IMG/VR virus record: IMGVR_UViG_2563366844_000003
Length of the DNA stretch: 19,234 nt
Reading direction: 5' to 3' (one strand)
Origin: a virus
Lineage: Duplodnaviria > Heunggongvirae > Uroviricota > Caudoviricetes
Shown here: positions 2,202 through 19,106 of the stretch, one piece after another
Layout: each line of letters begins with the position of its first letter
How positions within the stretch are numbered: the stretch's first letter is position 1
Notes under the pieces: generated by a model
Databases searched by the model: none
Told to the model about the DNA's origin: nothing
What the model saw: only the letters and a program-made list of their open reading frames with translations
Made by a program: the position numbers and the translations under genes

Positions 2202-2202
2202 T

Positions 2203-2234: not shown

Positions 2235-2270
2235 CTGTAATTCACTTTTGAGCATGCACACCATTAAATA

Positions 2271-2309: not shown

Positions 2310-2313
2310 AAGC

Positions 2314-2948: not shown

Positions 2949-2960
2949 CGGAGACTGAAA

Positions 2961-5217: not shown

Positions 5218-5477
5218 ATATCAACTTAATTTATCGTCATCCGTGTGAGCTGGAAATTGAATCATTGCTGAGCCGTGAAGAGCCATATCCAGACACATTC
5301 ACTCTTGCAGATCGCACGACTGAACGGCTTACCAGAGCGCGCACAGGTCTGGTTCATGTGATGAATGAGATTCTTCCATCGGTGGGAGGGGAACAGGCGA
5401 CAGTAATCACTAGCTGGCTACAAAAAGTTACCTCTCTGATAGATATCAGTTTAATCGATGCGGAGAGTGCGAAATGA
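5214..5477 (+). CDS. Hypothetical small protein (87 aa)
   Basis: Start/stop overlaps with both neighbours (ATGA), consistent with translational coupling. Confidence 0.55.
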   Translation: MNINLIYRHPCELEIESLLSREEPYPDTFTLADRTTERLTRARTGLVHVMNEILPSVGGEQATVITSWLQKVTSLIDISLIDAESAK

Positions 5478-5695
5478 CTAACATCCAGCTCATTGAAGCG
5501 CAATGTCGCATCGAACAGGTTCAGACTGTTTTAGGGTTCTGGCTTGAAGGGGCCAGCCCCAGCAACAGAGACAAGTTAATGATTGGCGCGGTTATGTCAC
5601 TGCTCAATGGCGTACCAGAAGCTATTCAGGAAGCGGACGAATTGTTGGGCAAATATGAGTTACAGAATCATTCAGGCGAGGCGAAACATGAATAA
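5474..5695 (+). CDS. Hypothetical small protein (73 aa)
   Basis: Coupled to neighbours; stop overlaps the start of the next gene (ATGAATAA at 5688-5695). Confidence 0.55.
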   Translation: MTNIQLIEAQCRIEQVQTVLGFWLEGASPSNRDKLMIGAVMSLLNGVPEAIQEADELLGKYELQNHSGEAKHE

Positions 5696-6290
5696 TTTCT
5701 TAACGTTCCATGCAGAAGCAACGCCTGACGGCGTAAACATCATGTACCGCAGCAACGATGGCATGACAGAACGCGTTGAGGCCGTCTCATATATTGATGC
5801 CGTAAATCGTCTGGATGCCGGGGATTATGACGATAAACCAGATGAAGGTATGTCAATACATCTCGCTATTGCCGATGGCGGCAACCAGGGATATTTCGAT
5901 TACACATCACAGCATAACGTCATTATGTGGAGATGGCTGATCGCAACAGTATTCATGCTGGAAATGAGAGAGGAAAACGGCACTGTCAGCATCATTGATG
6001 ATACTGGCAATCCTTCCGAAGTGGCTGTTTATTCCAACGGCATCGTCGCCATGCCGCTGTATCCAGTAGCAGAGCGTCTCGCTATGGCAAACAACATTGA
6101 GGGCGCGATGATAGAACGTTTTGGCATCGAGTCTGGCACAGAACGCGCCATCATTTTCTACAGAGCCATGATGGATGTGGAACAAGGAGCACTGACTCCA
6201 TTTGGTCGTGAAACGCTTGCTGAACTTCACAACAGCTTTATAGCTGAACTGAATGAAAACGGCATGCCAGCGGAACCAGTGACGCACTGA
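5688..6290 (+). CDS. Hypothetical protein (200 aa)
   Basis: Most plausible start is ATG 5688, overlapping the upstream stop; the track's 5583 start lies inside the previous gene. Confidence 0.6.
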   Translation: MNNFLTFHAEATPDGVNIMYRSNDGMTERVEAVSYIDAVNRLDAGDYDDKPDEGMSIHLAIADGGNQGYFDYTSQHNVIMWRWLIATVFMLEMREENGTVSIIDDTGNPSEVAVYSNGIVAMPLYPVAERLAMANNIEGAMIERFGIESGTERAIIFYRAMMDVEQGALTPFGRETLAELHNSFIAELNENGMPAEPVTH

Positions 6291-6300
6291 GGATGGAGCC

Positions 6301-6642
6301 ATGATTACTAAAAATTTCCGACTGAATGCGCTGGCAAATAAGTATGCGTCGGCACTGTATAACCACATTACCTCCACCAGCGACGGGGACTATTTCATGG
6401 TTGATGCGGACGGCGAGGCCGTACGTGTGGAAATCGTCAATGGAGTAAAAGGCGTTCGCAGCCTGATCGATAGCTACACACTGGCAGCCATGAAAGTGTT
6501 CTACCCGCAGTGGGAAACCGTGGGGATCGAGCTTCTTGAGCGTTGCGTCAATAAGGACGGATTGACTGACGTCGGGCGTGAGATATGGCAAAGCATGGTT
6601 AATGACATGGGCGCAACTGTAGCGGGAGGTTCTCATGCGTGA
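6301..6642 (+). CDS. Hypothetical protein (113 aa)
   Basis: GAGG SD before ATG 6301; stop overlaps the next start. Confidence 0.6.
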   Translation: MITKNFRLNALANKYASALYNHITSTSDGDYFMVDADGEAVRVEIVNGVKGVRSLIDSYTLAAMKVFYPQWETVGIELLERCVNKDGLTDVGREIWQSMVNDMGATVAGGSHA

Positions 6643-7006
6643 AAATGCAGAAATGGCGCTTAGCTCCGCAATCGGAGAGCAGGTGGCAAAGATTGCTGGT
6701 GCTGTGTGGATTCATAACCTTCATTCTACTGGTGAAGAGAAAATGGCAATTCAGACGCCAGAGGGACGCACCATTACTACATCTCTGAAGCCGTCAGATG
6801 TTTGTGATCTGATTTGCGCATTCATGTACCCAGCAATGAGGACTGTCCACGGCGATCAGTGGAAACTTGCGACAACCGCTGAATTTGATATGTGGCTAAA
6901 CAATGATGGCATGCTGACTGATTACGGAATAACCAAGTGGCAGATGCTGGTTAGCCATATCGCAAACGCTATAGACCACGTGGGGTACGGTGATGCGAAA
7001 CATTGA
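6635..7006 (+). CDS. Hypothetical protein (123 aa)
   Basis: GGAGG SD before ATG 6635; 3' end overlaps the primase start. Confidence 0.6.
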   Translation: MRENAEMALSSAIGEQVAKIAGAVWIHNLHSTGEEKMAIQTPEGRTITTSLKPSDVCDLICAFMYPAMRTVHGDQWKLATTAEFDMWLNNDGMLTDYGITKWQMLVSHIANAIDHVGYGDAKH

Positions 7007-9749
7007 TCTTATCCGTCAGGTTATCAGTGCGTCTGAAAACAACTGGCCTCATGTGCTGGGCTGCCTGAACATAAATGTCCCTGACTCTCCGCGCCGTCAT
7101 GCTCCCTGCCCTGCATGTGGGGGCAAAGATCGATTCCGGTTCGATGACAACGGGCGCGGTAGCTTCATCTGTAATCAGTGCGGCGCTGGTGATGGGCTGG
7201 ATTTAATTAAACGCGTAAATAACTGCGACACAACAGAGGCGGCGCTTCTTGCCGCTGATGTTCTGGGTATTGATTACCGGACAACGGAAACACCAGAAGC
7301 CACCAGCCAGAAACGGGAACAACTGGAAACCAAGCGCCAGCGACGCGAACAGGAGCGCCTGAAAAGGGCAGAGAAGGACGAACAACAAAGACGGGATACG
7401 TTTTCCCGTCAGTTTGATGACATGCGCAGAAAGGCTGTAAACGGCAAATCTGATTATCTGGTTGCGAAAGGGGTAGGTGATTTTACATTCCCCGTGTTGC
7501 CCGATGGATCTCTGTTGCTGGCGCTGGTGGATAAATCCGGCGCAGTCACAGCAGCACAGACTATTACCTCACATGGTGAAAAAAGACTCCTGACAGGTTC
7601 AGCAAAGCGGGGGGCATATCACGCCATAAACGCACCAGAAACAACACAGAGCATCTTAATCGCAGAAGGGCTGGCAACGGCATTATCTGCCCATTTAATT
7701 CGCCCAGAGGCGCTTACAGTGGCGGCGATTGATGCCGGGAACCTGTTATATGTCGCCCAGGTACTGCGGGATAAATTTCCTTCAGCACAAATCATCATTG
7801 CTGCGGATAACGACCACAGCGAAGGAAGACAAAACACGGGGAGAAGAGCAGCAGAAAAAGCAGCTTTATCTGTTTCTGGATGGGTGGCATTACCCCCGAC
7901 AGATCACAAAGCAGACTGGAATGATTACCACCAAAAACACGGCATTAAATGCGCCACAGAAGCGTTCAATAAGTCAATGTACCAACCACAGGGTAATGGC
8001 GTGAAACAGGAGCCACAGACCATTGAGGGAAGCGATTTTAAGGTTATGGATACCGACCCACTGAAACCAAGAATAGAAAGCCGCGAGGATGGTATTTATT
8101 GGGTATCTCCGAGAGCTGACAGCCAGAGTGGAGAAATCATCAATAACGAAAGCTGGTTATGTTCTCCGTTAAGCGTTATCGGTACTGGCAGAGACGATAA
8201 AGACCAGTATCTCATTCTTCGCTGGCTGTCGTTTGGTTCTGAAACGCCGACAACCGCTGCCATTCCACTGGCTGATATTGGTGAACGTGAAGGATGGCGC
8301 ACACTTAAAGCTGGTGGGGTAACTGTCACGACCAAAAGCAGCCTCAGAGCAATACTGGCAGACTGGCTACAACGCAGTGGCTCTCGTGAATTGTGGCGTG
8401 TTGCTCATGCCACTGGCTGGCAATGCGGAGCGTACATCATGCCTGATGGGGAAATCATCGGAACACCTGAAAATCCTGTGCTGTTCAGCGGGAGAAGCTC
8501 AGCCGCAGCCGGATATACCGTCTCAGGGAGCGCGAAAAGCTGGCGTGATAACGTGGCGCGTCTGGCCTTTGGTAACTATTCAATGATGACCGGGATCGGC
8601 GCAGCACTGGCAGCGCCATTGATTGGGCTGGTGGGCGCTGACGGGTTCGGCATTCATTTCTATGAGCAGTCGAGCGCAGGTAAGACCACCACGGCAAACG
8701 TGGCGAGCAGCTTATACGGCAACCCTGATTTACTGCGGCTGACGTGGTACGGAACCGCGCTGGGGCTGGCAAATGAAGCTGCCGCCCACAATGACGGACT
8801 AATGCCGCTTGATGAAGTTGGTCAGGGCGCTGATCCTGTCAGTGTTTCACAGTCTGCCTATGCGTTATTTAACGGTGTAGGGAAACTGCAAGGCGCTAAA
8901 GATGGTGGAAACCGGGATCTAAAACGCTGGCGTACAGTGGCAATCAGCACCGGAGAAATGGATTTAGAAACATTTATCGCTACTTCCGGGCGAAAAACCA
9001 AAGCCGGGCAACTGGTGCGACTGCTGAATATTCCGTTGAGTAAAGCAGTACGCTTTCACGATTACCAGAACGGAAAACAGCACGCAGACGCACTGAAAGA
9101 CGCTTACCAGCATCACCACGGCGCAGCCGGGCGTGAGTGGATTAAATGGCTGGCAGACCACCAGCAACAGGCAATTAAAACTGTTCGTGACCGCGAAAGC
9201 AGATGGAGAAGTCTGATCCCATCCGATTATGGTGAGCAGGTTCACCGTGTAGCCGCGCGATTTGCCATTCTGGAGGCCGCATTGCTGTTAGGCGAGGTTG
9301 TAACAGGCTGGGATGCTCAGACATGCCGTGATGCGATACAGCACAGCTATAACGCATGGTTGCGCGAGTTCGGCACAGGTAACAAAGAACATCAGCAGAT
9401 TATTGAACAAACGGAGGCATTTCTTAATGCCTATGGGCTTAGCCGTTTTGCACCATTTCCATACAGCCCGGCAGATTTGCCCATCAAAGATTTAGCCGGA
9501 TACCGTCAGCGTGGAGAACATGACGAAAGCCCAATGATTTTCTACACATTCCCGGCCACATTTGAAAAGGAGATCGCATGTGGTTTCAACGCAAAACAGT
9601 TTGCTGAAGTGTTGAAAAAAGCCGGGATGCTAACCCCACCAAACAGCGGTCGTGGATACCAAAGAAAATCACCACGTATTCAGGGACGACAAATAAACGT
9701 TTATGTACTCAATTACCAGCCAGGAGATTACAACTCATCTGAAGAATGA
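6993..9749 (+). CDS. Replicative primase/helicase, P4-alpha-like (zinc-binding N-terminus, TOPRIM, P-loop NTPase)
   Basis: Zn-ribbon CPACGG...FICNQCG near the N-terminus. TOPRIM-like ILIAEGLATA and IIIAADNDHSEG (acidic E and DxD). P-loop-like SSAGKTTT. Start is probably ATG 6993; the track begins at the in-frame GTG 6990. Confidence 0.9.
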   Translation: MRNIDLIRQVISASENNWPHVLGCLNINVPDSPRRHAPCPACGGKDRFRFDDNGRGSFICNQCGAGDGLDLIKRVNNCDTTEAALLAADVLGIDYRTTETPEATSQKREQLETKRQRREQERLKRAEKDEQQRRDTFSRQFDDMRRKAVNGKSDYLVAKGVGDFTFPVLPDGSLLLALVDKSGAVTAAQTITSHGEKRLLTGSAKRGAYHAINAPETTQSILIAEGLATALSAHLIRPEALTVAAIDAGNLLYVAQVLRDKFPSAQIIIAADNDHSEGRQNTGRRAAEKAALSVSGWVALPPTDHKADWNDYHQKHGIKCATEAFNKSMYQPQGNGVKQEPQTIEGSDFKVMDTDPLKPRIESREDGIYWVSPRADSQSGEIINNESWLCSPLSVIGTGRDDKDQYLILRWLSFGSETPTTAAIPLADIGEREGWRTLKAGGVTVTTKSSLRAILADWLQRSGSRELWRVAHATGWQCGAYIMPDGEIIGTPENPVLFSGRSSAAAGYTVSGSAKSWRDNVARLAFGNYSMMTGIGAALAAPLIGLVGADGFGIHFYEQSSAGKTTTANVASSLYGNPDLLRLTWYGTALGLANEAAAHNDGLMPLDEVGQGADPVSVSQSAYALFNGVGKLQGAKDGGNRDLKRWRTVAISTGEMDLETFIATSGRKTKAGQLVRLLNIPLSKAVRFHDYQNGKQHADALKDAYQHHHGAAGREWIKWLADHQQQAIKTVRDRESRWRSLIPSDYGEQVHRVAARFAILEAALLLGEVVTGWDAQTCRDAIQHSYNAWLREFGTGNKEHQQIIEQTEAFLNAYGLSRFAPFPYSPADLPIKDLAGYRQRGEHDESPMIFYTFPATFEKEIACGFNAKQFAEVLKKAGMLTPPNSGRGYQRKSPRIQGRQINVYVLNYQPGDYNSSEE

Positions 9750-9772
9750 GCTTCTTCATGTGCGTAGAAAAG

Positions 9773-9887
9773 GTGTTGGTTCAGTTGGTTCAGTTGGTTC
9801 AATTTATAAATGGTATTGTTTTATAAGGATTTTATTCTTTTTATTGAACCAACACTGAACCAACAACACGGTATTTTGAACCAACAC
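9773..9887. repeat. Iteron block 1: three tandem GTTGGTTCA (9775-9801), an AT-rich spacer, then three inverted copies TGAACCAAC (9845-9853, 9856-9864, 9877-9885); putative replication origin
   Basis: Exact 9-mers counted directly. Classic iteron plus AT-rich architecture, 26 bp downstream of the primase stop. Confidence 0.7.
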
Positions 9888-9935
9888 AATGTGACTGAAT
9901 TGATGCGCACAACACCTGGCTGGCATCAGAGAGTG

Positions 9936-10011
9936 TTTTACGAGACTTTCGTAAAATCCTGTGTACAAGGGCGTGACGTTTTTGAAAGTGAGCACTACGA
10001 AATTTTCGTAG
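9936..10011. promoter_or_regulatory. Two related palindromes sharing a TACGA/TCGTA half-site: TTTTACGA-n5-TCGTAAAA (9936-9956) and CTACGAAA-n1-TTTCGTAG (9995-10011)
   Basis: Perfect 8-bp inverted arms in both. Located between the iterons and the terminator; candidate operator sites or RNA hairpins. Confidence 0.3.
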
Positions 10012-10205
10012 TTCAGAAAACAGCCCTTGAGAAGTTGTTATGCCTGTTCAGCAAACCATCCGCATAGCTGATCGCGAATCAAATTACCAATGGAGCCAGA
10101 AGCAAGGGCAGAACTGAAAAGCGCCTGCCGTGAAGAGTAATGCGACACCATAAATATAGTTTTTAGAGTCCATAAAAAACCTGTCAAAACCTGACACACA
10201 GAACG

Positions 10206-10239
10206 ATGCCACCAGCTACTGAGCGGTGGCATTTTTTTT
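10206..10239 (+). terminator. Rho-independent terminator closing the primase/origin transcription unit
   Basis: ATGCCACC...GGTGGCAT stem (8 bp, extendable with inner pairs) followed by eight consecutive T. Confidence 0.65.
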
Positions 10240-10249
10240 GTGCTATATG

Positions 10250-10320
10250 TTTCATATTTTGCAATTACGATGATGAATGTTGCGATTTGTGAAACTATAA
10301 TAACTGTTGTTTTATACAGT
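10250..10320 (+). promoter_or_regulatory. Putative promoter region for the cargo operon (TATAAT at 10296-10301)
   Basis: AT-rich tract with a consensus -10 hexamer and TTGCAA/TTGCGA -35-like elements at non-ideal spacing, between the terminator and the SD of the small ORF. Confidence 0.3.
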
Positions 10321-10334
10321 TCTAAGGGGGCGTT

Positions 10335-10496
10335 ATGGCTATTTCAGTAAAGCCGGTATTGATAAGTGAGAAGCAAATGGAAGCGATAAAGAAAATTCAG
10401 GAAGAGCAGCGTAAAAAATCAGGAATTGGAGTAGCGCCAACTCTGCATGAAATTGCACGAGGGTTAATAGATAAGGCGCTGGCAGGCTGTATGTGA
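10335..10496 (+). CDS. Small ORF (53 aa) absent from the ORF track; possible ribbon-helix-helix-like regulator
   Basis: Strong SD AAGGGGG 5-6 nt before ATG 10335. Translation MAISVKPVLISEKQMEAIKKIQEEQRKKSGIGVAPTLHEIARGLIDKALAGCM has a beta-strand then two-helix pattern compatible with an RHH fold (by eye only). Confidence 0.4.
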   Translation: MAISVKPVLISEKQMEAIKKIQEEQRKKSGIGVAPTLHEIARGLIDKALAGCM

Positions 10497-10512
10497 AAAT
10501 GGATGGCATCGC

Positions 10513-10974
10513 ATGGAACTAAAATTTATTGATAACCCTGTGCGATTACAGGCCTTTCTTAACGAGCCTGGCAATACCGAAAATATTGTTGAGCCGGGGC
10601 ACACGTACTACATCAAGCCTGATGCGGTATATCTCGGTATCTACGAAGGATTGGTGCTGGCTGGCGTTCATGAAGTGCGTAACTTCTGGCATAACATTGT
10701 TGAATGCCATGCGGTGTACGACCCCGGATTCCGTGGTGAATATGCACTGCAAGGGCATCGATTATTCTGCAAATGGCTTCTCAAAAACTCACCATTCCTT
10801 AACAGCATTACCATGGTTCCTGACACCACCAAATACGGACGGGCAATTATCCGTTTGCTTGGCGCTACCCGTGTTGGTCACCTTGATGATGCTTATATCA
10901 GATGTGGTAAACCCGTCGGCGTAACGCTTTATCAGTTAACTCGGCAACAATATAAGGAATTCAGCGAATGTTAA
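10513..10974 (+). CDS. Putative virion-associated protein, first gene of the ejection-protein-like operon (position analogous to P22 gp14)
   Basis: 153-aa intact ORF whose stop overlaps the next start. Assignment rests on operon position and size, not a recognised motif. Confidence 0.65.
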   Translation: MELKFIDNPVRLQAFLNEPGNTENIVEPGHTYYIKPDAVYLGIYEGLVLAGVHEVRNFWHNIVECHAVYDPGFRGEYALQGHRLFCKWLLKNSPFLNSITMVPDTTKYGRAIIRLLGATRVGHLDDAYIRCGKPVGVTLYQLTRQQYKEFSEC

Positions 10975-11645
10975 TTACCCATATAGCTCATAAATATCTC
11001 AATCGTGCCGTATACGAAAAAGGCGGTGATGGTGGTGCCTCTAAAGCTCAGGCGAAGGCCCAGCAGCAGGCAATTGATTTGCAGCGCGAGCAGTGGAATA
11101 CGGTGATGAATAATCTCAAGCCGTATGCAGAAGTCGGATTGCCTGCTTTACAACAACTACAAGGACTGATGACTCTGGAAGGGCAGAATAAAGCCGCGAA
11201 TGATTTCTTTGGTTCTGGTTTATATAAAACACAGGCAGATCAGGCCCGTTATCAGAACCTTGTCTCAGCAGAAGCTACCGGGGGGCTTGGCTCAACAGCT
11301 ACCAGTAACCAGTTATCTTCCATTGCGCCCATGCTTTATAACAATTGGCTCAGTGGGCAAATGCAAAATTATGGAAACCTGCTAAATGTCGGGATGAATG
11401 CGGCATCAGGGCAGGCAACAGCAGGGCAAAACTACGCCAATAATACCGGACAACTCTTGCAGGGGCTTGGCGCTATTCGTGCAGGTCAGGCGCAGCAGCC
11501 ATCCAGTCTTGCGCGTGGTATTGGTGGGGCGGCATCAGGCGCTTTAGCGGGTGCGCAACTTGGTTCCGTTGTTCCGGGTATAGGTAATGTCGCCGGGGCT
11601 ATTGGTGGTGGGCTTATTGGTCTTGTTGGGGGGCTTGGATTCTAA
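10968..11645 (+). CDS. Putative ejection/DNA-transfer protein (P22 gp7-like architecture; Gly-rich hydrophobic C-terminus)
   Basis: 225 aa. Gln/Ala-rich N-terminal half and a glycine-zipper-like tail GIGGAASGALAGAQLGSVVPGIGNVAGAIGGGLIGLVGGLGF. Stop overlaps the next start (TAATG). Confidence 0.7.
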   Translation: MLITHIAHKYLNRAVYEKGGDGGASKAQAKAQQQAIDLQREQWNTVMNNLKPYAEVGLPALQQLQGLMTLEGQNKAANDFFGSGLYKTQADQARYQNLVSAEATGGLGSTATSNQLSSIAPMLYNNWLSGQMQNYGNLLNVGMNAASGQATAGQNYANNTGQLLQGLGAIRAGQAQQPSSLARGIGGAASGALAGAQLGSVVPGIGNVAGAIGGGLIGLVGGLGF

Positions 11646-12964
11646 TGGCGACATGGCAACTTGGCGGGCTGCCTAGCATGGCACCGCAAAATGATAATGC
11701 TCCTCGTTCTTCCGTTCCTCAGCCTGTGCAGTATCAGCAGCAGCCAAACGTAGGTTTAATGGCGCTACAGGGGCTAAGAGGCGTTGCTGAGATTAATCAG
11801 CAGGCGCAAATTTCCCAGCAGCTAAAAGAATATCAGGCACGGTTGGGTAGTGCGGTAGCTAATAATGATCGTGTTGGAGTGCAGAAGTTAATGGCCCAGT
11901 ATCCCCAGTTTATGGCTGATTCTCAAAAACAGATGGGATTCATTGATGCTGAGCAAAATCGACAGACCGCTGACGCTGCCATGAATCTGCGTCTTGCGTC
12001 ACAAACTGGAGATCCACTGACCATGCAGAAGGCCATTCAGCAGGCAAATCCAGTATTACAGCGATTTGGTCTTCCTGCTGAAGAGGTTTATCAGTCTTGG
12101 CAGAATGACCCACAGGAATTCAACAGAATCACTGACCTCATCCACCTCCATGCTGATCCAAATAGTTACTTTAGTGTTCAAGAGAAGCAGCAAGGGCAGA
12201 GCATTGCACAGCAGAACGCAGATACATCTGCATATAATGCTCAGGTTAATGCGGAACAGGGTAATCGGCGTCTCGATATGGAGCAGTTCAAAGTCCTATC
12301 CGATAACCAACTACGCACGAGAGAAATGGTTCTGAAAGCACGACTTGGACGTGCTCAAAATGACATCGAGAGAGACAAGCTCAATGCTGAACTGAGCAAA
12401 GTACAGCAGGCGAAAGTGGAGAAGATGAACGATAAAATTAATACTGTTGCAGGTAACATCGACTCCTTGAACTCTGCGCTTGAAGTGGGTCATGAACTGG
12501 CGGGAATTGTAGGGAAACATCCTTCGGCCGTTACCCGCTCGCAGAACTATAACCCCCTGACGCTGGGGTTTGGATTCCTTCCTGATGTAGCAGAAGACAC
12601 ACGAAGCCTACGCGCCAAAGCTGATGAATACAACCTAAAGGTTATTCTGCCTAGCCTCAAAGGGACTTTTGGCTCTAACCCAACCGAAGGGGAAAGGGCT
12701 GCCCTTATGCAATCTCAAAATGGCATTAAGTCAGCAACCAGCAATGAGGCATTTTTGCGAGAGTTGAATAAAGCGCAGGACGTAATTATTCGAATGCAGA
12801 AACGACAGATTGCCGGGCTCGGTATTCCTGTAACCAAATCAAAGGACGAAGAAACTGATACCAAAATGCTGTTGCAGGATCCTTCACTGATTAAGGATTA
12901 TGTGACCGCACATGGCTATCTGCCGGAAAGTTACTATCAGGCAAAACTTAAGGGATGGCAATGA
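11645..12964 (+). CDS. Putative ejection protein (P22 gp20-like; Gln-rich coiled-coil)
   Basis: 439 aa, Gln-rich and predicted alpha-helical. Coupled start/stop with both neighbours. Confidence 0.7.
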   Translation: MATWQLGGLPSMAPQNDNAPRSSVPQPVQYQQQPNVGLMALQGLRGVAEINQQAQISQQLKEYQARLGSAVANNDRVGVQKLMAQYPQFMADSQKQMGFIDAEQNRQTADAAMNLRLASQTGDPLTMQKAIQQANPVLQRFGLPAEEVYQSWQNDPQEFNRITDLIHLHADPNSYFSVQEKQQGQSIAQQNADTSAYNAQVNAEQGNRRLDMEQFKVLSDNQLRTREMVLKARLGRAQNDIERDKLNAELSKVQQAKVEKMNDKINTVAGNIDSLNSALEVGHELAGIVGKHPSAVTRSQNYNPLTLGFGFLPDVAEDTRSLRAKADEYNLKVILPSLKGTFGSNPTEGERAALMQSQNGIKSATSNEAFLRELNKAQDVIIRMQKRQIAGLGIPVTKSKDEETDTKMLLQDPSLIKDYVTAHGYLPESYYQAKLKGWQ

Positions 12965-15681
12965 TGGCACAACTGACAGAAAAACAGAAAGCCTATTCCC
13001 GTCATCTCGATGAAAAATATGGTTTCCCATCAGGGACGATGGAAACATTAGTTGGCAATGAATCTAGTGGTAACGGAAGTGCCGAGTCACCGAAAGGAGC
13101 TAGAGGATTTGCTCAACTGATGCCCTCAGTAATGAGTGATGCTGGTTATCGTGGAACTGATCCGCGCTCACTGCCATTTGAAAAGCAAATGGATATCGCA
13201 GCAAACCATCTCAATAAAGGAATGAAGCGATTTGGTGATATTGGTATGGCATTGGCTGGGTATAATTCTGGCTATGCTCGTATTAATGCCGTCAGAAACG
13301 GTAAATCTACACTGCCAGATGAAACGGCTAATTACGTAAGTAAATTTGCAGATGCCGGAATAATCCCTGATGACAGTGAAATCTTGCAGTTTGCACAAAC
13401 CAGTCAACATCGCAATCTTCAGCAGCCTGACTACTCAGAGCTTGATAAAGAAATCTCTCAGGTGGGAGATATTTCTGCATGGGAAGCAAAACGTCAGCAA
13501 TTTAAGAACATAGAAGCAGGACTACCAACAGCCAGTTCATGGGAGCAGAAAAGAGCTCAGTTTCTCGCCGATGAAAATGCCGGGGAACCGCAGCAGCAAG
13601 TAGCCAAGTCTAACCTTAATCCTGAGATGGAATATCTTTCGCCAGGACTGAAAGCTGCGCCAGAGCAGATGGCCAGAGGGATTGCTAATATACCGTTTGA
13701 TGTAATGGACGCAGGCGTGGGGGTAGTCAATGCGGCGCAATCAGCCGGAGCATGGGCAGCTCAGAAGCTTGGTGTGGGTGATGGCACATACACGCCCATA
13801 TCACCTGTCTTTCGCCCAGTAGACCAACCTACAGATCCATACGCGCAGGCTGGTGAGCAGCTAGCACCTTACCTTATTACAGGATTAGGTGCAGGAAAGG
13901 CAGCTACCGCAGCTTCTTCCGTTGCCAACGCTCCACGTGCTGAACGTGCGGCCACAAAGGTGGCTAGTATGTTGGCAGAAAACCTGCCAGGTACATTGGT
14001 GAACGCCCAAAAGAACGGGCAGATCAGCCCAGAAGACCTAGCAAAAGAGACAGGTATTGGCCTAGCAGGATCGCTAGGAGCACGCGCTTTAATAAAGAGC
14101 GGACAGACAGCCAGTGACGTAATGCGAGATGTATTGCGGAGTAATACAAATCAATCAGGCCATGTGTTAGGGGCAGCAAATACTCTGGAAACCGCCAATG
14201 ATGTATCGAAAGCAGCGCGTTCTGCCGTAGGCCGAGAGCATATCGCATCGCAGGCATCAAACGTCAGAGATGATGTCGCTAAGGCGGCGAAAATCACTGG
14301 TATTAATATCAACACCCTGACGCCCGGAATGCGCTCAGGTAGTCGTGGAATTGCCCAAGCAGAAGGTGTTCTGGCATCAACTCCTGGGAATGTTCAGGAT
14401 GCTCACCTTACGGCCTTCAATGAAATATCCTCAAAGTTGAATAAGCAGTTGTCTGATTTCGGTGCTGAGTCTGGAAGCGCATCAGAAAAAAGCGCAGCAA
14501 TTAAAGAGCGCATCATCGCGAGCCTCAGTGATATGAAAACAGCAGAGAATATGGCATGGGCAGAACTGCGAAGCACGATGCCACGCGAAAGGATGAAAAT
14601 GAGTAATGGGATGGCTGTCGTCCAAGCAGAAAAAGCAGCCAATGTTCCACTCAGCCCGGAGATGAAACAGTTTCAGGCTGCCAACAACCAAGGTGGCGGC
14701 ATAACCTTCGACGGGATGAAGGCATGGCGTGCTAAGTTTGCTGATGCTGAACAAGCAAACACCCGGGCAGGTAAGGCCAATGCCGCCCGGATTGCCGGAG
14801 AAATGCGCAGAGCTATCACTGATGACATGCGCATCATGGCTGAAAAAGGAAACTTCCTCACAGAATGGCAGAAAGCTAACGATCTCTCTAAAAGTTACAT
14901 TATCGCCAAACAAAATGCCGAATCTGTTTTTGGTCGAGATCTCGCATCAGACGCTATGGTAAGAAAAGGTGCCGATACGCTTAAGGCATCCGCAAACACT
15001 GGAACGGGAGCTTTTCACCGCCTTATCTCCGCGCTGCCGGAAGCAGAACGCCAACCAGCAATAGCATCTATTCTTCAGCATGCTGTGGCGCAGGGAGAGA
15101 AGGGAGGAATCGGTGAAGAGTCTGGTATCCAGTATTTTGCCAAGCTCATGACCCAGCAGAATGTAAACGCCATCAGTCGTCATGCGCCAGATCTCGGTAG
15201 AATGATGAAAGAGTTCGGTGTACTCGCTAAAGCCAGCACCAGACCGCAGCGATACGTAGAGCGCACGGGAAGAACAACTGAGGCTCTCAAAACGCTCGAT
15301 TCAGGCCTTCCAAAGATCGTCGGTGTGATCATGAACGGAGTTCAACAGTCAGGTGCGATCGCTGGAGGCTTTGGCGGTGGTGTAATTGGTTCGATTAGTG
15401 GTTTGGTTGCTGGTGGCGCACTGAGAAATACTGTGGCTAAGATTGGGGCGACAAGAAGTGGTCGATATGCGATAGAGAAAGCCGTTCAGGAAGCTACAAA
15501 AGCAGTGCGCGCAGGGGCATCACCAGCAGCGATCGCCGCAGCAGAGAAACGATTTTCGACCAATAAAATTGCCATGAAAGCAATTCGTGATGCCGTTGGG
15601 GCTGAAGAATTCGTGAAACTGACAAGGGCCGGGATTGTAGCTACCCTCAGTGGCATGAAAGATGTTAGCGAATGGGAATAG
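12955..15681 (+). CDS. Large internal virion/ejection-type protein with N-terminal lytic transglycosylase (SLT) domain
   Basis: 908 aa. SLT motifs GNESSGNGSAESPKGARGFAQLMP (putative catalytic Glu at nt 13060-13062) and ALAGYNSGYARINAV. True start is probably ATG 12961 or 12964, which have better SD spacing from AAGGGA. Confidence 0.85.
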   Translation: MAMMAQLTEKQKAYSRHLDEKYGFPSGTMETLVGNESSGNGSAESPKGARGFAQLMPSVMSDAGYRGTDPRSLPFEKQMDIAANHLNKGMKRFGDIGMALAGYNSGYARINAVRNGKSTLPDETANYVSKFADAGIIPDDSEILQFAQTSQHRNLQQPDYSELDKEISQVGDISAWEAKRQQFKNIEAGLPTASSWEQKRAQFLADENAGEPQQQVAKSNLNPEMEYLSPGLKAAPEQMARGIANIPFDVMDAGVGVVNAAQSAGAWAAQKLGVGDGTYTPISPVFRPVDQPTDPYAQAGEQLAPYLITGLGAGKAATAASSVANAPRAERAATKVASMLAENLPGTLVNAQKNGQISPEDLAKETGIGLAGSLGARALIKSGQTASDVMRDVLRSNTNQSGHVLGAANTLETANDVSKAARSAVGREHIASQASNVRDDVAKAAKITGININTLTPGMRSGSRGIAQAEGVLASTPGNVQDAHLTAFNEISSKLNKQLSDFGAESGSASEKSAAIKERIIASLSDMKTAENMAWAELRSTMPRERMKMSNGMAVVQAEKAANVPLSPEMKQFQAANNQGGGITFDGMKAWRAKFADAEQANTRAGKANAARIAGEMRRAITDDMRIMAEKGNFLTEWQKANDLSKSYIIAKQNAESVFGRDLASDAMVRKGADTLKASANTGTGAFHRLISALPEAERQPAIASILQHAVAQGEKGGIGEESGIQYFAKLMTQQNVNAISRHAPDLGRMMKEFGVLAKASTRPQRYVERTGRTTEALKTLDSGLPKIVGVIMNGVQQSGAIAGGFGGGVIGSISGLVAGGALRNTVAKIGATRSGRYAIEKAVQEATKAVRAGASPAAIAAAEKRFSTNKIAMKAIRDAVGAEEFVKLTRAGIVATLSGMKDVSEWE

Positions 15682-15831
15682 ACGCTCTAACTAACAAAAC
15701 CATAATAGCCAAGGACGGCATACTGATATTGAGCCAACTATAAAAATTCCATATCACATTACGAGCCTGTGGCTTACATTCGCTTACAGTGATGATAATT
15801 TATAACCACGCAATTCTTAGGTGAGATTATC

Positions 15832-16530
15832 ATGATTAAAAATCTTCTTTTAATATTATCCCTGTCATTATTGGCTGGATGCGTACAAAAACCGTTAGTA
15901 ACGGTCAATGCTTTATCCTCCGGGCAATCTGTCGGTAAGAAGTTCTTGATCATCCCCGCAAGCCAAGAACTTTGGAACACCAAACAGATTGAATACACTC
16001 AAATAGCTACGGTAGTAGCCGCCAGTTTATCAAGCCAAGGATATACACAAGTTAAAGATGAAAAATTGGCTGACCAGGTAATTCTCTTGAACTTTTTGAG
16101 AAGCGGGGCCATTTCAAATACTCGTAATGTAACCATCCCAATATACGGGCAAACTGGTGTGAGCTCAGCAACAACGTACGGAAACTCGAACACCACGTTC
16201 AATAGTTATGGTGGTGGCTACGGTACGGCTAATACCACTGGAACGGCAACAACAGTTTATACGCCTACTTATGGAATTACTGGCGCGTATAACACAACTG
16301 TGACGGACACGTTCTACGGCGCAGGGGTGATACTCCAGTCGTTTGATGCCAAGGCTTATCTCAATAATAGGCAGATTAATATGTTATGGAAAGTTGGTAG
16401 CTCAGTCGTCTCGCAACAGTCTGATGGAATTGCTGATTACAAAGGGTTGGCGAGAATAGCCGCTAGCTATGCCGGGAAAAATACAGAAGGTGATATAACT
16501 TTTAATGTTGACCCTAAAGCACCAAATTAA
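15832..16530 (+). CDS. Lipoprotein with Thr/Gly/Tyr-rich low-complexity core
   Basis: Signal peptide plus lipobox LLAGC. Central T/G/Y/N-rich tract (about aa 110-160). AGGTGAG SD. AT-richer than the upstream operon. Confidence 0.8.
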   Translation: MIKNLLLILSLSLLAGCVQKPLVTVNALSSGQSVGKKFLIIPASQELWNTKQIEYTQIATVVAASLSSQGYTQVKDEKLADQVILLNFLRSGAISNTRNVTIPIYGQTGVSSATTYGNSNTTFNSYGGGYGTANTTGTATTVYTPTYGITGAYNTTVTDTFYGAGVILQSFDAKAYLNNRQINMLWKVGSSVVSQQSDGIADYKGLARIAASYAGKNTEGDITFNVDPKAPN

Positions 16531-16537
16531 CTAATAA

Positions 16538-16553
16538 GCCCGGTACGCCGGGC
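16538..16553 (+). terminator. GC-rich hairpin GCCCGG-tacg-CCGGGC after the lipoprotein gene (weak terminator candidate)
   Basis: 6-bp GC stem with a 4-nt loop, 8 bp after the stop, but a poor U-tract (ATTCAT). Confidence 0.3.
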
Positions 16554-16743
16554 ATTCATGCCCCTATTATTCATGAATCGCTTTTTCTGGAAGGTATGCG
16601 ACAAACGTTAAGTGACATTGCCTACACATTCGGGGCGGGATTTCAAATCCGCTCCCAGTTGATGGGGCCGTTACAGTACGCGCATATCCGCTTTATGTGA
16701 AACAGGAAGATTTTTCTGATATCACTGCCACAGCAAAACACCA

Positions 16744-16956
16744 ATGTCGAGACAAGTACGCGCGCGAGGGTTATCAGTTGCAAAAAGTTTTGCAACTGCG
16801 TCCGACCAGTACGCACACAATGGAGGGGAGTACCATAAAACTGTTCTCTACATAAGACAGAGTGATGGTGATGTGTTGATTATCGGCTTATATGCGCACA
16901 GGACGCGCTATGACGATGTTTTATGCGGGTACACCAATCACATATATCTGGTGTGA
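16744..16956 (+). pseudogene. Possible remnant of a RelE/ParE-superfamily toxin gene (C-terminal motif only)
   Basis: C-terminal HKTVLYIRQSDGDVLIIGLYAHRTRYDD loosely matches the RelE/ParE C-terminal pattern, but the N-terminal 35 aa are not toxin-like and overlap repeat sequence. Weak. Confidence 0.2.
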
Positions 16957-17055
16957 TAAATCGCGTTACATGACCTCTCATGTTGTGCTGGTGGTTATCA
17001 CGACGTTCTGAATCTGGCCTTTGCCTGGTATTTTGCGACAAGTACGCGCGCGTAG
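16752..17055. repeat. Direct repeats GACAAGTACGCGCGCG (16752-16767 and 17040-17055) flanking a 24-bp perfect palindrome CAGTTGCAAAA-AG-TTTTGCAACTG (16775-16798)
   Basis: Exact 16-mer occurs twice 288 bp apart. A third TACGCGCGCG occurs at 19012-19021. Confidence 0.6.
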
Positions 17056-17600
17056 CATCGAAATAATCGGATGGCGTATGCTGCTGGTAATATGAAGACC
17101 GATAGCATTAACCGAAAGGAGAAAGACTTCTCGATAACGGCAAGATCGCGGCAAGGGGGCTGAATTGCGAGGCGAGATTAAGCAACTGTCTTGAACGTAA
17201 AAATCATGGAGCAACATGATGGTACGATTCATTCCATTCTTCGTTCTTTCTGAGCATTGCGTTCAGGCTTAGTCAAAATTAGTGTTGCGAGCGGACCTAT
17301 TAGTAATTGTTAGTGCGATGCGCCTGTTATGGATTGTTATGGTTGTGGCAGGCCTGATTAATATCCAGTATGACCACCAGCTATGAGAAGCCACCTCAGT
17401 GGTTCGCAGTTGCAGGTTTGCACTCAGGTTCGCAGGGTTTTGGCTACTTTCACGTGCGAACCTGCAGAATTGCAAAGGACAACTAAGTCCTCTGGCCAAC
17501 TCCCGGTTTATGAGCGACACAGTCCGCCTGGCGCATCGTTTTCGTCGAGTGCGCCCATCAGCTTGTCCATGGACTATCCACCACTCGATATTAAAGCTAA

Positions 17601-17786
17601 TCATTGGTTGCCAGCCCGCGAATCAAGTTTATTCTGGATCCAAGCTTCAACCTCCTCAAGCGACCATCTAGCTGATCTACCAATTTTAACTGGCTGTGGA
17701 AACGTGCCCGTCTTAACCCATGAGTAGATTGCCGTTTTCTTGAAGCCCGTTCTGAGCATGACTTCGCTTAATTTGATAAGGCGCAT
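17601..17786 (-). CDS. alpA: Second AlpA-family transcriptional regulator, opposite strand
   Basis: 61 aa. MRLIKLSEVMLRTGFKKTAIYSWVKTGTFPQPVKIGRSARWSLEEVEAWI is a textbook AlpA sequence. GGAG SD on the minus strand upstream. Confidence 0.85.
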   Translation of the reverse strand: MRLIKLSEVMLRTGFKKTAIYSWVKTGTFPQPVKIGRSARWSLEEVEAWIQNKLDSRAGNQ

Positions 17787-17835
17787 AGAGGCTCCTCTGC
17801 TTTAGATTAAGCATAGTGACAATCTGGCTTTGGGC

Positions 17836-17870
17836 GGTATCCAAAAGCGAGGTATCCATGTTGGTATCCA
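17836..17870. repeat. Three direct GGTATCCA repeats (17836-17843, 17851-17858, 17863-17870) in the divergent region upstream of minus-strand alpA
   Basis: Exact 8-mers spaced 15 and 12 bp apart, start to start. Confidence 0.5.
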
Positions 17871-17984
17871 CCAAAACGCTGTTTACCAAAAAAGTTACCA
17901 CCGGAACAGGACATTTTGAGCTGTAACTTAACACATAGCATATGGAGTTCACGTATAGACTTCACGCACAACGGCTCCGGCCAG

Positions 17985-18013
17985 TGAAGAATCACCCTGG
18001 CTGGCAATATAAT
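17985..18013 (+). promoter_or_regulatory. Putative promoter (-10 TATAAT at 18008-18013) for the small + strand ORF
   Basis: Consensus -10 hexamer with a weak -35 (TGAAGA) at 17-bp spacing. Confidence 0.3.
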
Positions 18014-18038
18014 GCCGATCACCATCAGAGGGGAATCC

Positions 18039-18215
18039 ATGACACCACGAGAAATCGAGCTGCTGACCATTGCCAAGCTGGAGCATGACGGCCACCAGCT
18101 CAGCCCGGCAGAACTGCGGGAATTAAGGCGCCAGCTGGCAGAGGGCCCTGTAATAGCCAGGCGGTACCGCGAAATGATGACCAGCGCCGCTCCGTGCGCG
18201 GTGAGCAGCACCTAA
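18039..18215 (+). CDS. Small hypothetical protein (58 aa)
   Basis: GAGGGG SD 5 nt before ATG 18039. The track's start at 18012 overlaps the -10 box and lacks an SD. Confidence 0.45.
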   Translation: MTPREIELLTIAKLEHDGHQLSPAELRELRRQLAEGPVIARRYREMMTSAAPCAVSST

Positions 18216-18276
18216 CCAGCACTAGACAAGCCCTGTGCTGGTGGATGTCCCTCATAATTAGCGGTTTTTAAACGGC

Positions 18277-18401
18277 GTGTTGGTTCACGGCCTCTTTTTG
18301 TTGGTTCAAAAATGGGGGGTGTTGGTTCACTTTTTGCGAATAATCCTTTTAAAAACAATACTCTTTACAAATTGAACCAACTGAACCAACTGAACCAACA
18401 C
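18277..18401. repeat. Iteron block 2: three spaced GTTGGTTCA (18279-18287, 18300-18308, 18321-18329), an AT-rich spacer, then three tandem TGAACCAAC (18373-18399); inverted copy of block 1
   Basis: Same 9-mer as block 1, with the tandem and spaced arrays swapped. The reverse complement of the spacer aligns with the block-1 spacer (shared ATTTRTAAA...GTATTGTTTT...AGGATT...ATTC). Confidence 0.7.
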
Positions 18402-18435
18402 CTTTTTGCTTATCTATATAGTCTGAGAGGCAGAA

Positions 18436-18723
18436 ATGATGAGGGACAGGAAAGCTGAAGAGCTGGAGTCAAAAGGGCTATGCCGGAGAGCTGCCGCACG
18501 ATGGGCAGAAGTCATGACGCTGGCAGATGGCGATAAAGAACGTGAACATGCAGCAAACAGACGCTCTGAATGTATCCGTAGGGCGGCACGCCCACCAGCA
18601 ACTACAGACAGATTCGGAGATTTAAGACAGGCAGTTAAGCGAACTCATTCGGCTCTTGGTATGGATGAGGAAGCGAGAGGGTACTTCAGGCGTTATCGCG
18701 ATAAAGATTGCCAGAGACAGTAA
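18436..18723 (+). CDS. PerC-family transcriptional regulator (tentative)
   Basis: 95 aa. N-terminus KAEELESKGLCRRAAARWAEVM resembles the PerC motif (AEKLEAKGLWRRAA.RW.EV) as I recall it. GAGAGG SD. Confidence 0.6.
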   Translation: MMRDRKAEELESKGLCRRAAARWAEVMTLADGDKEREHAANRRSECIRRAARPPATTDRFGDLRQAVKRTHSALGMDEEARGYFRRYRDKDCQRQ

Positions 18724-19106
18724 TGCTCTCTCTGTTTTGGCAAATTACCCCTCACTTTGAAGGGATCGGAGCTATAAAAATGGTGTTATCCGGCTTCCTG
18801 CATTGCAGGTTTTCGAAAAAATCAATGGGTTAGGTCATCGTGCAAATTTGCACTCTGCCAGCCAACGCAATTTCTCGTTGGCGAAAATATCAGGTATTTA
18901 CTGAACGAACGGTCTACCAGTCTATTCAGTTACCAGTTGCACATGGCTGTTTCATGTGAGAACGGAGGTTTTTTCGGACATCACTATTGGGTACAGCAAT
19001 TTCACGAGCAATACGCGCGCGCAGGACAACAAGCCTGAACATGATTACACACCTCGATCGTGAGGGATGTAGACAATGGCTTCTGACCAAAGCACCCAAA
19101 AAAACC

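Follow-up and report, generated by a model that had tools for sequence, protein, structure and literature searches.

Phage-inducible chromosomal islands (PICIs) serve as widespread carriers of virulence, defence, and regulatory genes. The PICI origin is described in the papers surveyed as a single iteron/AT-rich unit after rep (PMC6092414). It lies directly 3′ of rep, with two iteron sets around an AT-rich region, and its function has been tested for EcCICFT073 (PMC6092414). SaPI Rep recognises iterons via a C-terminal winged helix (PMC9371898). The island EcCIMP1 of E. coli MP1 has been shown experimentally to be excised and transduced by the P22-like phage Kapi1, and its dependence on this helper for excision, replication, and packaging is published; the origin and iterons of EcCIMP1 are not described in that paper (PMC11773190). 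We found no mention of a second inverted origin unit in the searched papers that discuss PICI iterons.

The island and its two iteron blocks

The window, the whole stretch of 19,234 nucleotides analysed here, is a complete EcCIMP1-type PICI, a satellite of E. coli phages. EcCIMP1 is 98.3% identical to the window over 2507-18516 (16 kb) and has both iteron blocks. The primase, the ejection-protein genes, the opposite-strand alpA_1, and the perC-like gene are the same in the two islands, which differ in the integrase and att module (window 1-2506): EcCIMP1 is at thrW and the window island at yicC/dinD. The PICI gene set is present (int, alpA, antA, ash, and a Toprim-DUF927 primase). A tyrosine integrase occupies one end (Arm-DNA-bind_3, Phage_int_M, and Phage_integrase domains at 1-1260), an Rfam int-alpA RNA lies at 1269-1335, and a Phage_AlpA gene is found downstream of int at 2314-2517, the ORF map being mostly rightward and unidirectional as in other PICIs. 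Insertion is site-specific, between yicC and dinD in many genomes, and a GGTGTACATAAT repeat is present at both island ends. As in Gram-negative PICIs, the primase is fused to a helicase-initiator related to SaPI Rep, according to Pfam domains and PDB matches. The whole window has a single integrase and a single primase.

The features of the replication region and its surroundings are:

6990-9749, plus strand: Pri-Rep gene (919 aa), a Zn-ribbon and Toprim primase fused to a DUF927 helicase-initiator
9600-9746, plus strand: candidate iteron-reading tail, codons of primase residues ~871-919, with the motif GRGYQRKSPRI
9775-9801, plus strand: block 1, three tandem GTTGGTTCA iterons
9802-9844, no strand: block 1 AT-rich spacer, 43 nt, GC ~0.14
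9845-9885, minus strand: block 1, three spaced inverted iterons with start-to-start distances of 11 and 21 bp
9915-9925, plus strand: CCTGGCTGGCA motif, between the two blocks in compact relatives and at the left edge of the inserted cargo in the window
9926-18276, plus strand: cargo between the two blocks, comprising orf53, a P22-like ejection operon (DUF2824, gp7, gp20, and a gp16-like gene with an SLT domain), a lipoprotein-like ORF, a decayed/variable region, and the minus-strand alpA_1
17601-17786, minus strand: alpA_1 (Pfam Phage_AlpA, E = 1.9e-13)
18279-18329, plus strand: block 2, three spaced GTTGGTTCA iterons with start-to-start distances of 21 and 21 bp
18330-18372, no strand: block 2 AT-rich spacer, 43 nt, GC 0.23, with an invariant CTTTACAAAT at its end
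18373-18399, minus strand: block 2, three tandem iterons, reading TGAACCAAC on the plus strand
18400-18421, plus strand: right flank ACCTTTTTGCTTATCTATATAG, TTTTTGCTTATATATA-like, conserved after the second block in all iteron lineages
18436-18723, plus strand: perC-family gene directly downstream of block 2 (Pfam PerC, E = 8.5e-31; RefSeq annotation)

The 9-mer GTTGGTTCA has 12 exact copies in the window, all within the two blocks (9775-9885 and 18279-18399) and in mirror-image order, compared with ~0.15 expected by chance from an arithmetic estimate. Plus-strand copies start at 9775, 9784, 9793, 18279, 18300, and 18321, and minus-strand copies at 9845, 9856, 9877, 18373, 18382, and 18391. 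When one mismatch is allowed, 17 matches are found, compared with 4.4 ± 2.1 in shuffles, and none of 200 shuffles reaches 17. The flanking chromosomal sequence retrieved along with six E. coli loci also lacks the 9-mer.

These data confirm the first-pass annotation, which had reported two mirror-image iteron/AT-rich blocks around 8.4 kb of cargo. The outer arms (9768-9822 and 18352-18406) form an inverted repeat of 55 nt that is 95% complementary. Similarity extends beyond the 9-mer: block 1 and reverse-complemented block 2 are 78% identical over ~180 columns, both spacers are AT-rich and equal in length, and similarity stops at the outermost iterons. The description of block 2 as the reverse complement of block 1 holds for the mirror order but is inexact in the spacing of the spaced iterons (11/21 versus 21/21 bp). 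The second alpA of that annotation exists as the minus-strand gene alpA_1 and is not the plus-strand ORF at 18012-18215, which has no Pfam match. In EcCIMP1, alpA_1 is an accessory gene that is dispensable for the PICI cycle and related to xis of the helper phage (PMC11773190).

Block 1 is a canonical PICI/SaPI-type origin. It begins 26 bp past the Pri-Rep stop codon, directly 3′ of pri-rep, and its spacer, the length of which is constant in nearly all relatives, is the probable melting region. Block 2 has the same layout of opposite iteron sets, AT-rich region, and cognate iteron. It is located 8.5 kb downstream of pri-rep in the window, rather than immediately 3′ of it as in 24 compact relatives.

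Initiator and iteron types

Pri-Rep contains the Pfam domains Zn_Ribbon_Prim, Toprim_3, and DUF927, and its residues 404-814 match the SaPI 'Pathogenicity island protein' entries 8tch (E = 1.6e-11) and 5dgk of the PDB. Six iteron types occur among the islands (GTTGGTTC, GTTGTCTC, GTCGGTTC, ACGGGTTA, GTCGGGTA, and GGTCGGTT), and the type is always identical in both blocks of one island. The type also co-varies with the C-terminus of the primase. QRKS-PRI is present in all 28 primases of the GTTGGTTC type and QGRV--RE in all five of the GTTGTCTC type, and other types go with other motifs. In addition, ~80%-identical primases of different iteron type differ at residues ~871-919 and, more weakly, at residues 811-840. 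Judging from this co-variation, Pri-Rep probably recognises GTTGGTTCA through its extreme C-terminus, a tail that AlphaFold2 models with low confidence (pLDDT < 50). A short C-terminal motif of the primase would then predict iteron specificity, with the candidate code QRKSPRI for GTTGGTTCA and QGRVRE for GTTGTCTCA.

The second block in related islands

Among 52 related loci, the second block is positioned 33-64 bp after block 1 in 24 and 0.44-9 kb away in 11. Eleven related loci with the full 10 kb of downstream sequence have block 1 only. In the 24 compact islands, all from Enterobacterales, the two blocks make up a mirror-symmetric composite origin of ~290 bp. The joined blocks of the window can be aligned, without change of order, to the uninterrupted origins of Erwinia (73%), Yersinia (66%), and Rahnella (63%), and the join point falls directly after CTGGCTGGCA. 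We infer that the compact arrangement was split, rather than the reverse. In the window island, as in islands from at least nine further genera, the two modules are separated by accessory or packaging genes. By these comparisons, block 2 is not a second satellite but a component of the origin throughout the family.

Islands with separated blocks whose iterons, spacing, and AT-rich spacer are all intact occur in 10 genera, with primases 57-80% identical to that of the window. All 13 separated second blocks analysed have three spaced iterons, an AT-rich spacer, and three tandem iterons. Invariant among them are two iterons of the spaced set of three, most tandem-array positions, the 13/13/45 spacing, and CTTTACAAATT; the sequence between the iterons varies. 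A split island with the iteron type GGTCGGTT (L044) has the matching type in both blocks. The spacers of the separated second blocks are 43-52 nt long with a GC content of 0.12-0.28 (13 of 13), whereas 14 of the 24 adjacent second blocks have a GC-rich spacer of 34 nt (hypergeometric P ~3e-4 by our own arithmetic, the lineages not being independent). Therefore, the second block cannot be a second melting site in those 14 islands.

Private variants common to both blocks are found in several loci (L001, L010-L014/L020, L029, L037, and L046/L058). The arms differ by 9.4 within an island and by 10.9 between islands, a contrast reached by 43 of 20,000 permutations. Both observations suggest occasional gene conversion between the blocks.

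In the initiator-swapped islands B2C and ETEC1721, the helicase-initiator half and block 1 are replaced by a DUF5906-type cassette with different iterons, and block 2 is intact. The N-terminal 345 aa, comprising the Zn-ribbon and Toprim, are the sole part common to the window primase and the DUF5906-type protein of these sister islands. No cognate initiator for the orphan block 2 of B2C and ETEC1721 was detected in the genome. A decayed remnant in O111:H8 also keeps an intact block 2. Therefore, intact iterons are no proof of current function, and block 2 is dispensable in those islands. The origin of the DUF5906-type replicon also ends in the CCTGGCTGGCA motif.

Readings of the second block and known systems

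On balance, we favour a two-origin (bipartite) PICI replicon, with block 2 as its second origin module, complete and inverted. The sequences themselves show how the blocks are built, that they are conserved across genera, that block 1, block 2, and the primase C-terminus vary together, and that none of the matching complete E. coli genomes carries an inverted or collapsed isoform. After helper-induced excision as a circle of ~19 kb, Pri-Rep would bind the iterons of both blocks and load at both AT-rich spacers. The island would thus replicate from two origins, block 2 firing as well as block 1, or from two cooperating Rep-binding sites, possibly by looping like P4 ori/crr. One SaPI-type origin is believed to load two hexamers on its own (PMC9371898), so the mechanism does not call for a second origin.

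Block 2 could instead be a Rep-binding regulatory element that does not fire, which we consider unlikely. It might be an operator or promoter through which initiator levels act on perC (rightward) and on the leftward accessory genes, or it might restrain copy number as a Rep sink or handcuffing site. Its location fits: the intergenic region that holds it is divergent, flanked by minus-strand accessory genes and by perC, and the linkage of block 2 to perC in E. coli survives the swap of the initiator cassette. The TTTTTGCTTATATATA flank after the tandem iterons is kept in every iteron lineage, and the GC-rich spacers of the 14 compact islands indicate that iteron binding without melting is evidently viable. 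However, no sigma-70-like promoter is predicted in or adjoining block 2, and in L015, L021, L026, L029, and L030 the block that precedes perC is block 1 rather than block 2. Moreover, the geometry of an origin is retained in full by all separated second blocks, together with an AT-rich spacer as long as that of block 1, which is more than a mere operator would need.

It is less probable still that block 2 is a functionless relic of an ancestral compact double origin split by rearrangement, with its right half surviving only through youth or through hitch-hiking with perC. Single-block relatives exist, and the orphan blocks of the DUF5906-type islands and of the decayed remnant are consistent with such a history. 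A relic would hardly explain the intact split arrangement in 10 genera with such divergent primases, inter-iteron sequences that have diverged where the iterons have not, the type match of both blocks in L044, or arms homogenised within islands.

We give a small chance to an amplification device, proposed by analogy with the 2-micron plasmid. With only one of the origin regions replicated, one fork could be flipped by recombination or gene conversion between the inverted modules, turning theta into double-rolling-circle replication. The satellite would then produce head-to-tail concatemers by itself, which its P22-like helper could package by the headful mechanism, and the origin halves could serve as conserved anchors for the exchange of cargo cassettes between islands.

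The two remaining proposals of the first-pass annotation are both very improbable. A head-to-head fusion of two satellites, of which block 2 and the minus-strand alpA_1 would be the remnant of the second, draws on the opposite-strand alpA-family gene 490 bp from block 2 beside a decayed region, but there is no second integrase or primase remnant in the window, block 2 lies upstream of alpA_1 on the minus strand, unlike the PICI gene order, alpA_1 is already described as an accessory gene, and the 24 compact relatives place the second block in the same origin. A recombination switch that inverts or deletes the cargo could use the inverted arms (55 nt, 95-100% identical) and would fit the signs of gene conversion, but the inversion junction was found in 0 of 509 and the collapsed junction in 0 of 551 matching complete E. 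coli genomes, the scanned proteins include no invertase-type recombinase, and recombination between inverted repeats cannot delete the intervening segment. A site-specific invertible segment would have both orientations in populations and an invertase gene nearby, and neither was seen in these genomes and scanned proteins.

These results suggest that the origin is mirror-duplicated in a large PICI lineage of the Enterobacterales, to which the experimentally tractable EcCIMP1 belongs, and that kilobases of cargo can come between its halves. The two-origin or cooperating-site replicon is a concrete hypothesis testable with existing strains, and the blocks are a landmark for annotating such islands and for locating the variable cargo slot. 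If block 2 is silent, it is still a conserved predicted initiator-binding array beside perC and accessory genes, which would link replication to accessory-gene control.

Compared with PICI/SaPI origins, block 1 shares the opposite-orientation iterons around an AT-rich region 3′ of pri-rep (Ubeda et al. 2007; Fillol-Salom et al. 2018, PMC6092414; Qiao et al. 2022, PMC9371898). Its initiator is likewise a self-loading helicase homologous to SaPI Rep, and the initiator and its cognate origin are passed on as one cassette. Published descriptions give one such unit per island, whereas the window lineage has another in inverted orientation, next to the first or as far as 9 kb from it.

Satellite P4 has one primase-helicase-initiator and two separated clusters (ori and crr) of the same short iteron at a flexible distance. 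Its alpha protein combines a primase, a D5/DUF5906-type helicase, and a C-terminal iteron-binding domain, and crr consists of two direct ~120-bp repeats required in cis. The window likewise pairs one primase-helicase-initiator with two separated clusters of the same iteron, so the idea of a duplicated origin analogous to ori/crr stands as far as one lineage-specific iteron is present in both blocks and co-varies with the primase C-terminus. The analogy does not extend to the initiator, the helicase half of which is DUF927/SaPI-Rep-like and not P4-alpha/DUF5906, or to block 2, which repeats the whole origin once in inverted orientation and is not a pair of direct repeats; the orphan cases suggest that it is not required in cis. 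In some sister islands, the initiator is replaced by a P4-alpha-like (Toprim and DUF5906) cassette with its own two iteron clusters.

The yeast 2-micron plasmid combines inverted repeats with an origin and is amplified by double-rolling-circle replication. It differs from the window island, in which neither a dedicated recombinase nor orientation isoforms were found. Both carry inverted repeats on a small circular replicon, and by analogy only, recombination during replication could re-orient forks in the island.

Anatomy of the two iteron blocks

The 9-mer iteron GTTGGTTCA occurs in 12 exact copies in the 19,234-bp window, and all of them are confined to block 1 and block 2, in agreement with the first-pass annotation. 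With one mismatch permitted, 17 iteron matches are found, versus 4.4 ± 2.1 in shuffled sequences; 17 or more are reached in 0 of 200 shuffles.

Iterons of the two blocks (window coordinates, strand, description)
9775-9801, plus strand, three tandem iterons of block 1, matching GTTGGTTCA
9845, 9856 and 9877, minus strand, three inverted iterons of block 1, after a 43-nt spacer
18279, 18300 and 18321, plus strand, three iterons of block 2, matching GTTGGTTCA
18373-18399, minus strand, three tandem inverted iterons of block 2, after a 43-nt spacer

The likeness of the blocks extends beyond the 9-mer, as that annotation had also claimed. Block 1 aligns to the reverse complement of block 2 with 78% identity, the likeness ending at the outermost iterons, and a repeat finder returns an inverted pair of 55 nt at 95% identity (9768-9822 / 18352-18406). 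The proposed mirror architecture holds for the order and orientation of the iterons but not exactly for their spacing: the starts of the spaced iterons are 11 and 21 bp apart in block 1 and 21 and 21 bp apart in block 2. The GC contents of the spacers are 0.14 (block 1) and 0.23 (block 2), versus ~0.48 for the window.

Block 1 is a canonical PICI origin. PICI origins lie immediately 3' of the replication initiator gene (Fillol-Salom et al., PMC6092414), and residues 404-814 of the primase, its helicase part, match the SaPI Rep structures 8tch (E=1.6e-11) and 5dgk. A hairpin (GAAGAA-tgagc-TTCTTC, window 9741-9757) spans the primase stop codon and, lying between pri-rep and the origin, may act as a terminator or in translation. 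Its arms co-change in the related island locus L007 (GAGGAA...TTCCTC), and the pairing is only partly retained in other relatives.

The island that carries the blocks

The window is a whole genomic island, and many E. coli strains carry it integrated between yicC and dinD. Its layout is that of Gram-negative PICIs (PMC6092414).

Gene order of the island
Left part: int, alpA, antA, ash and several small ORFs
Middle: 919-aa Zn-ribbon/Toprim/DUF927 primase-helicase, then block 1
Cargo, first part: P22-like ejection operon (DUF2824, gp7, gp20 and a gp16-like gene with an SLT domain)
Cargo, second part: lipoprotein-like ORF, decayed region, minus-strand alpA
Right end: block 2, then perC

EcCIMP1 of E. 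coli MP1 is 98.3% identical to window 2507-18516 and contains both iteron blocks. In experiments, this PICI is excised and transduced by the P22-like phage Kapi1 (PMC11773190); the same paper makes no mention of iterons or an origin. Although published E. coli PICIs carry cosN, no GGGCGGCGACCT-like site of the lambda type is found above chance in the window, and the island family relies on a P22-like helper instead. The sole repeat found as an att candidate is the 12-nt GGTGTACATAAT. A full P22-like ejection-protein gene set (DUF2824, gp7, gp20, gp16-like/SLT) occupies window 10513-15681 on the plus strand of a satellite without capsid, tail or terminase genes. Because the near-identical EcCIMP1 is mobilised by the P22-like Kapi1, the satellite could be providing ejection proteins of its own or disturbing those of its helper.

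The second alpA reported in the cargo is present, with its location corrected to the minus strand at 17601-17786. In EcCIMP1, this gene (alpA_1) is an opposite-strand accessory gene related to the helper's xis, and the PICI cycle is independent of it (PMC11773190). The slot just left of block 2 (window 16500-18270) is variable and mostly holds opposite-strand accessory genes, as seen by comparing the window with the related loci L002, L003, L004 and L083. In the window, as in 042 and MP1, the slot is occupied by alpA_1; ETEC1721 has an Abi-family protein there, and ABU 83972 and B2C have other hypothetical ORFs. Window 16.5-17.6 kb contains no intact ORF with a database match. Three copies of a ~30-60-nt repeat that ends in GACAAGTACGCGCGCG lie towards the right of the window (16705-16766, 17024-17052 and 18962-19021); sister islands have two, 286 bp apart, and in a Serratia fonticola island (L063, ~13440-13470) the repeat adjoins block 2.

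In the left part, three RNAs score above the Rfam gathering thresholds, all on the plus strand: int-alpA RNA (1269-1335), the Hfq-binding sRNA isrK (4344-4421) and C4 antisense RNA (4484-4571). Because the latter two lie within the annotated 'ash' ORF (3963-5030), this annotation may mask a module for sRNA-based antirepressor control resembling that of P1/P7. Upstream of alpA, in intergenic sequence, the direct repeat ATCATGATAATAAAATTTA / ATCGTGACAATAAAATTTA (2195-2234) may be an operator of the alpA promoter and a route by which the helper phage induces the island.

Second blocks and initiators across Enterobacterales

The double origin is a family-wide feature, and block 2 forms its second half. 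A primase search with one genome per species yields 77 loci across Enterobacterales (primases 51-99% identical; handles L001 onwards); for 52 of these, iterons were mapped in the sequence 3' of the primase stop codon. The block 1 layout is nearly rigid in these 52 loci: three tandem iterons, 45 nt, iteron, 3 nt, iteron, 13 nt, iteron. At 24 loci, a second block follows 33-64 bp after block 1 and ends in three tandem inverted iterons, forming a roughly mirror-symmetric compact unit of ~290 bp (for example, L025, L036, L038, L046 and L049). At 11 loci from nine further genera (Lonsdalea, Chimaeribacter, Rosenbergiella, Pantoea, Serratia, Limnobaculum, Leclercia, Cedecea and Erwinia), the second block lies 0.44-9 kb downstream of block 1 and is equally rigid: iteron, 13 nt, iteron, 13 nt, iteron, 45 nt, three tandem inverted iterons. 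Within the sequence covered, 16 loci have block 1 only, 5 of them with <6 kb downstream. Compact and split forms also recur among IMG/VR contigs.

Block 1 of the window (with CCTGGCTGGCA, 9915-9925) and block 2 align in order with contiguous origins; the joined blocks are 73% identical to that of Erwinia, 66% to that of Yersinia and 63% to that of Rahnella. In these alignments, the two halves meet exactly at the end of CTGGCTGGCA. All lineages conserve (C)ACCTTTTTGCTTATATATA, the flank that follows the second block. For the window's iteron type, the collapsed, compact form is found in 0 of 551 matching E. coli genomes.

Origin modules of both DUF927-type and DUF5906-type replicons end with the motif (T)TCT(C)CTGGCTGGCA (window 9915-9925; L004, ~7030; between the two blocks in compact origins), which may be a module boundary or recombination anchor. 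The conserved halves and this boundary motif could serve as anchors for cassette exchange. Other local variations are a block 1 with seven tandem iterons rather than three in Erwinia (L064, 3983-4050) and a direct repeat, GTAAGACAnnGTAAGACA, 15-30 bp upstream of the second block in L015, L021, L023, L029 and L062; this repeat, present in five genera and absent from E. coli, may be an operator for a neighbouring gene. The Yersinia pekkanenii locus L036 contains three composite origins in 6 kb and a stretched primase match, suggesting tandem or rearranged islands.

Judged from sequence, both blocks belong to the island's own initiator. The iterons fall into six types (GTTGGTTC, GTTGTCTC, GTCGGTTC, ACGGGTTA, GTCGGGTA and GGTCGGTT), and every two-block island, including the split Limnobaculum island (L044), has the same type in both blocks. 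Iteron type goes together with a short motif close to the C-terminus of the primase: GRGYQRKS-PRI is present in 28 of 28 GTTGGTTC-type proteins, GRGYQGRV--RE in 5 of 5 GTTGTCTC-type proteins, and other motifs accompany the remaining types. This suggests a candidate pairing of QRKSPRI with GTTGGTTCA origins and of QGRVRE with GTTGTCTCA origins. Compared with the window protein, GTTGTCTC-type primases are more divergent than GTTGGTTC-type primases of matched overall identity (~80%) in two segments only, residues ~811-840 and 871-919; a SaPI-like domain for reading iterons would be expected in this region. A PDB sequence search with the last 140 aa of the primase returns nothing significant. In an AlphaFold2 model (30-sequence alignment), pLDDT is <50 over the last ~110 residues, a low confidence at which the resemblance of two helices and a beta-hairpin in the modelled tail to a winged helix is only suggestive.

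When 13 separated second blocks are aligned, no change is seen in CTTTACAAATT, in two spaced iterons out of three or at most tandem-array positions, and the sequences between iterons differ freely. An AT-rich spacer (43-52 nt, GC 0.12-0.28) is present in 13 of 13 separated second blocks, and a conserved 34-nt GC-rich spacer (GC 0.50-0.74) in 14 of 24 adjacent ones (hypergeometric P for 13/13 ~3e-4, with lineages that are not independent). Therefore, a stand-alone second block always has complete origin anatomy.

The two blocks of an island also share variants. In CV839-06, an A-to-G change in the middle tandem iteron is common to both blocks. The GTTGTCTC(A/T)-GTTGTCTTT pattern of L010-13 is unlike that of L014/L020, yet the two blocks of any one island agree in it; the middle position reads GTCGGTTCA in both blocks of L037 and GTTAGTTCA in both blocks of L029; and the 6-nt outer flanks are identical between blocks in L020, L037 and L046/L058. 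Across 12 islands and 47 positions, the arms differ by 9.4 within an island versus 10.9 between islands, a likeness reached by only 43 of 20,000 permutations. These observations suggest occasional gene conversion between blocks, or joint adaptation to the initiator. We rejected the block 1 spacer of CV839-06 as a sign of conversion; it is the common E. coli state, and that of the window is the variant. The shared A-to-G iteron variant is the sole remaining gene-conversion evidence from CV839-06.

A probable bipartite origin and its alternatives

We consider that the island probably has a bipartite, two-module origin. The functional reading of block 2 is weakened by the existence of single-block relatives and by three inspected E. 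coli cases of an orphan block 2. In B2C and ETEC1721, the primase gene stays identical or almost identical as far as residue ~345 (85% identity to the window protein is measured for residues 1-345), and an unrelated helicase half of the DUF5906, P4-alpha-like type follows.

Swapped initiator cassette, within the primase gene
L004 (island locus of B2C), 4531-8125
L083 (island locus of ETEC1721), 1028-4640

The iterons of this cassette (CCTGTACC/GGTACAGG) are different and form two clusters 1.1 kb apart, one on either side of two small ORFs, in an arrangement similar to ori/crr. Block 1 is gone in both strains, and block 2 is kept before perC with six perfect copies of GTTGGTTCA; no further copy of the iteron blocks is found in either genome. 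Six perfect iterons are also retained in a decayed O111:H8 remnant that consists of alpA_1, block 2 and perC only. With the orphan block intact in all three cases, perfect iterons do not prove that a block still functions, and some islands at least can do without block 2. In addition, one SaPI-type origin is thought sufficient for two hexamers (PMC9371898).

Alternatively, block 2 is possibly a regulatory element, consistent with its position between divergent genes and the conserved TATATA-containing flank that follows it. However, perC follows block 1 instead in five genera, and promoter and terminator scans around both blocks predict no sigma-70-like promoter at block 2, so a role as the perC promoter is unsupported. 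perC was likewise rejected as a general partner of block 2, since it follows block 1 in several genera. A head-to-head fusion of two satellites, which the first-pass annotation had considered from the inverted arrangement, is unlikely: the island has one integrase and one primase only, the gene order around block 2 is unlike that of a minus-strand PICI, and alpA_1 is a known accessory gene (PMC11773190). The inverted blocks are not supported as an inversion switch, another possibility raised there, since a synthetic inversion junction with both halves joined is found in 0 of 509 genomes and no invertase is present among the proteins scanned.

The PICI origin is already known, and EcCIMP1 is published. 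Apparently new are the inverted second origin module, its occurrence in compact or split form across Enterobacterales, and the coupling of iteron type to the C-terminal primase motif. A full-text literature search for the iteron sequence returns unrelated primer matches only, and the searchable PICI-iteron literature, outside figures and subscription journals, mentions neither the second block, its two states nor the motif link. The double block is real and general, lends itself to direct testing in an established experimental system, and adds to what is known of satellite replication without overturning it. The analysis itself establishes the anatomy of the blocks, their conservation and co-variation, and the lack of isoforms.

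For the bipartite origin, we propose that after helper-induced excision the C-terminal tail of Pri-Rep would bind the iterons of both modules and open the 43-nt AT-rich spacers. On the ~19-kb circle, replication would then start at two sites, 8.5 and ~10.6 kb apart, with block 2 firing as well as block 1. Alternatively, the two Rep-bound sites may cooperate by looping, as do ori and crr of P4. The compact form would be ancestral.
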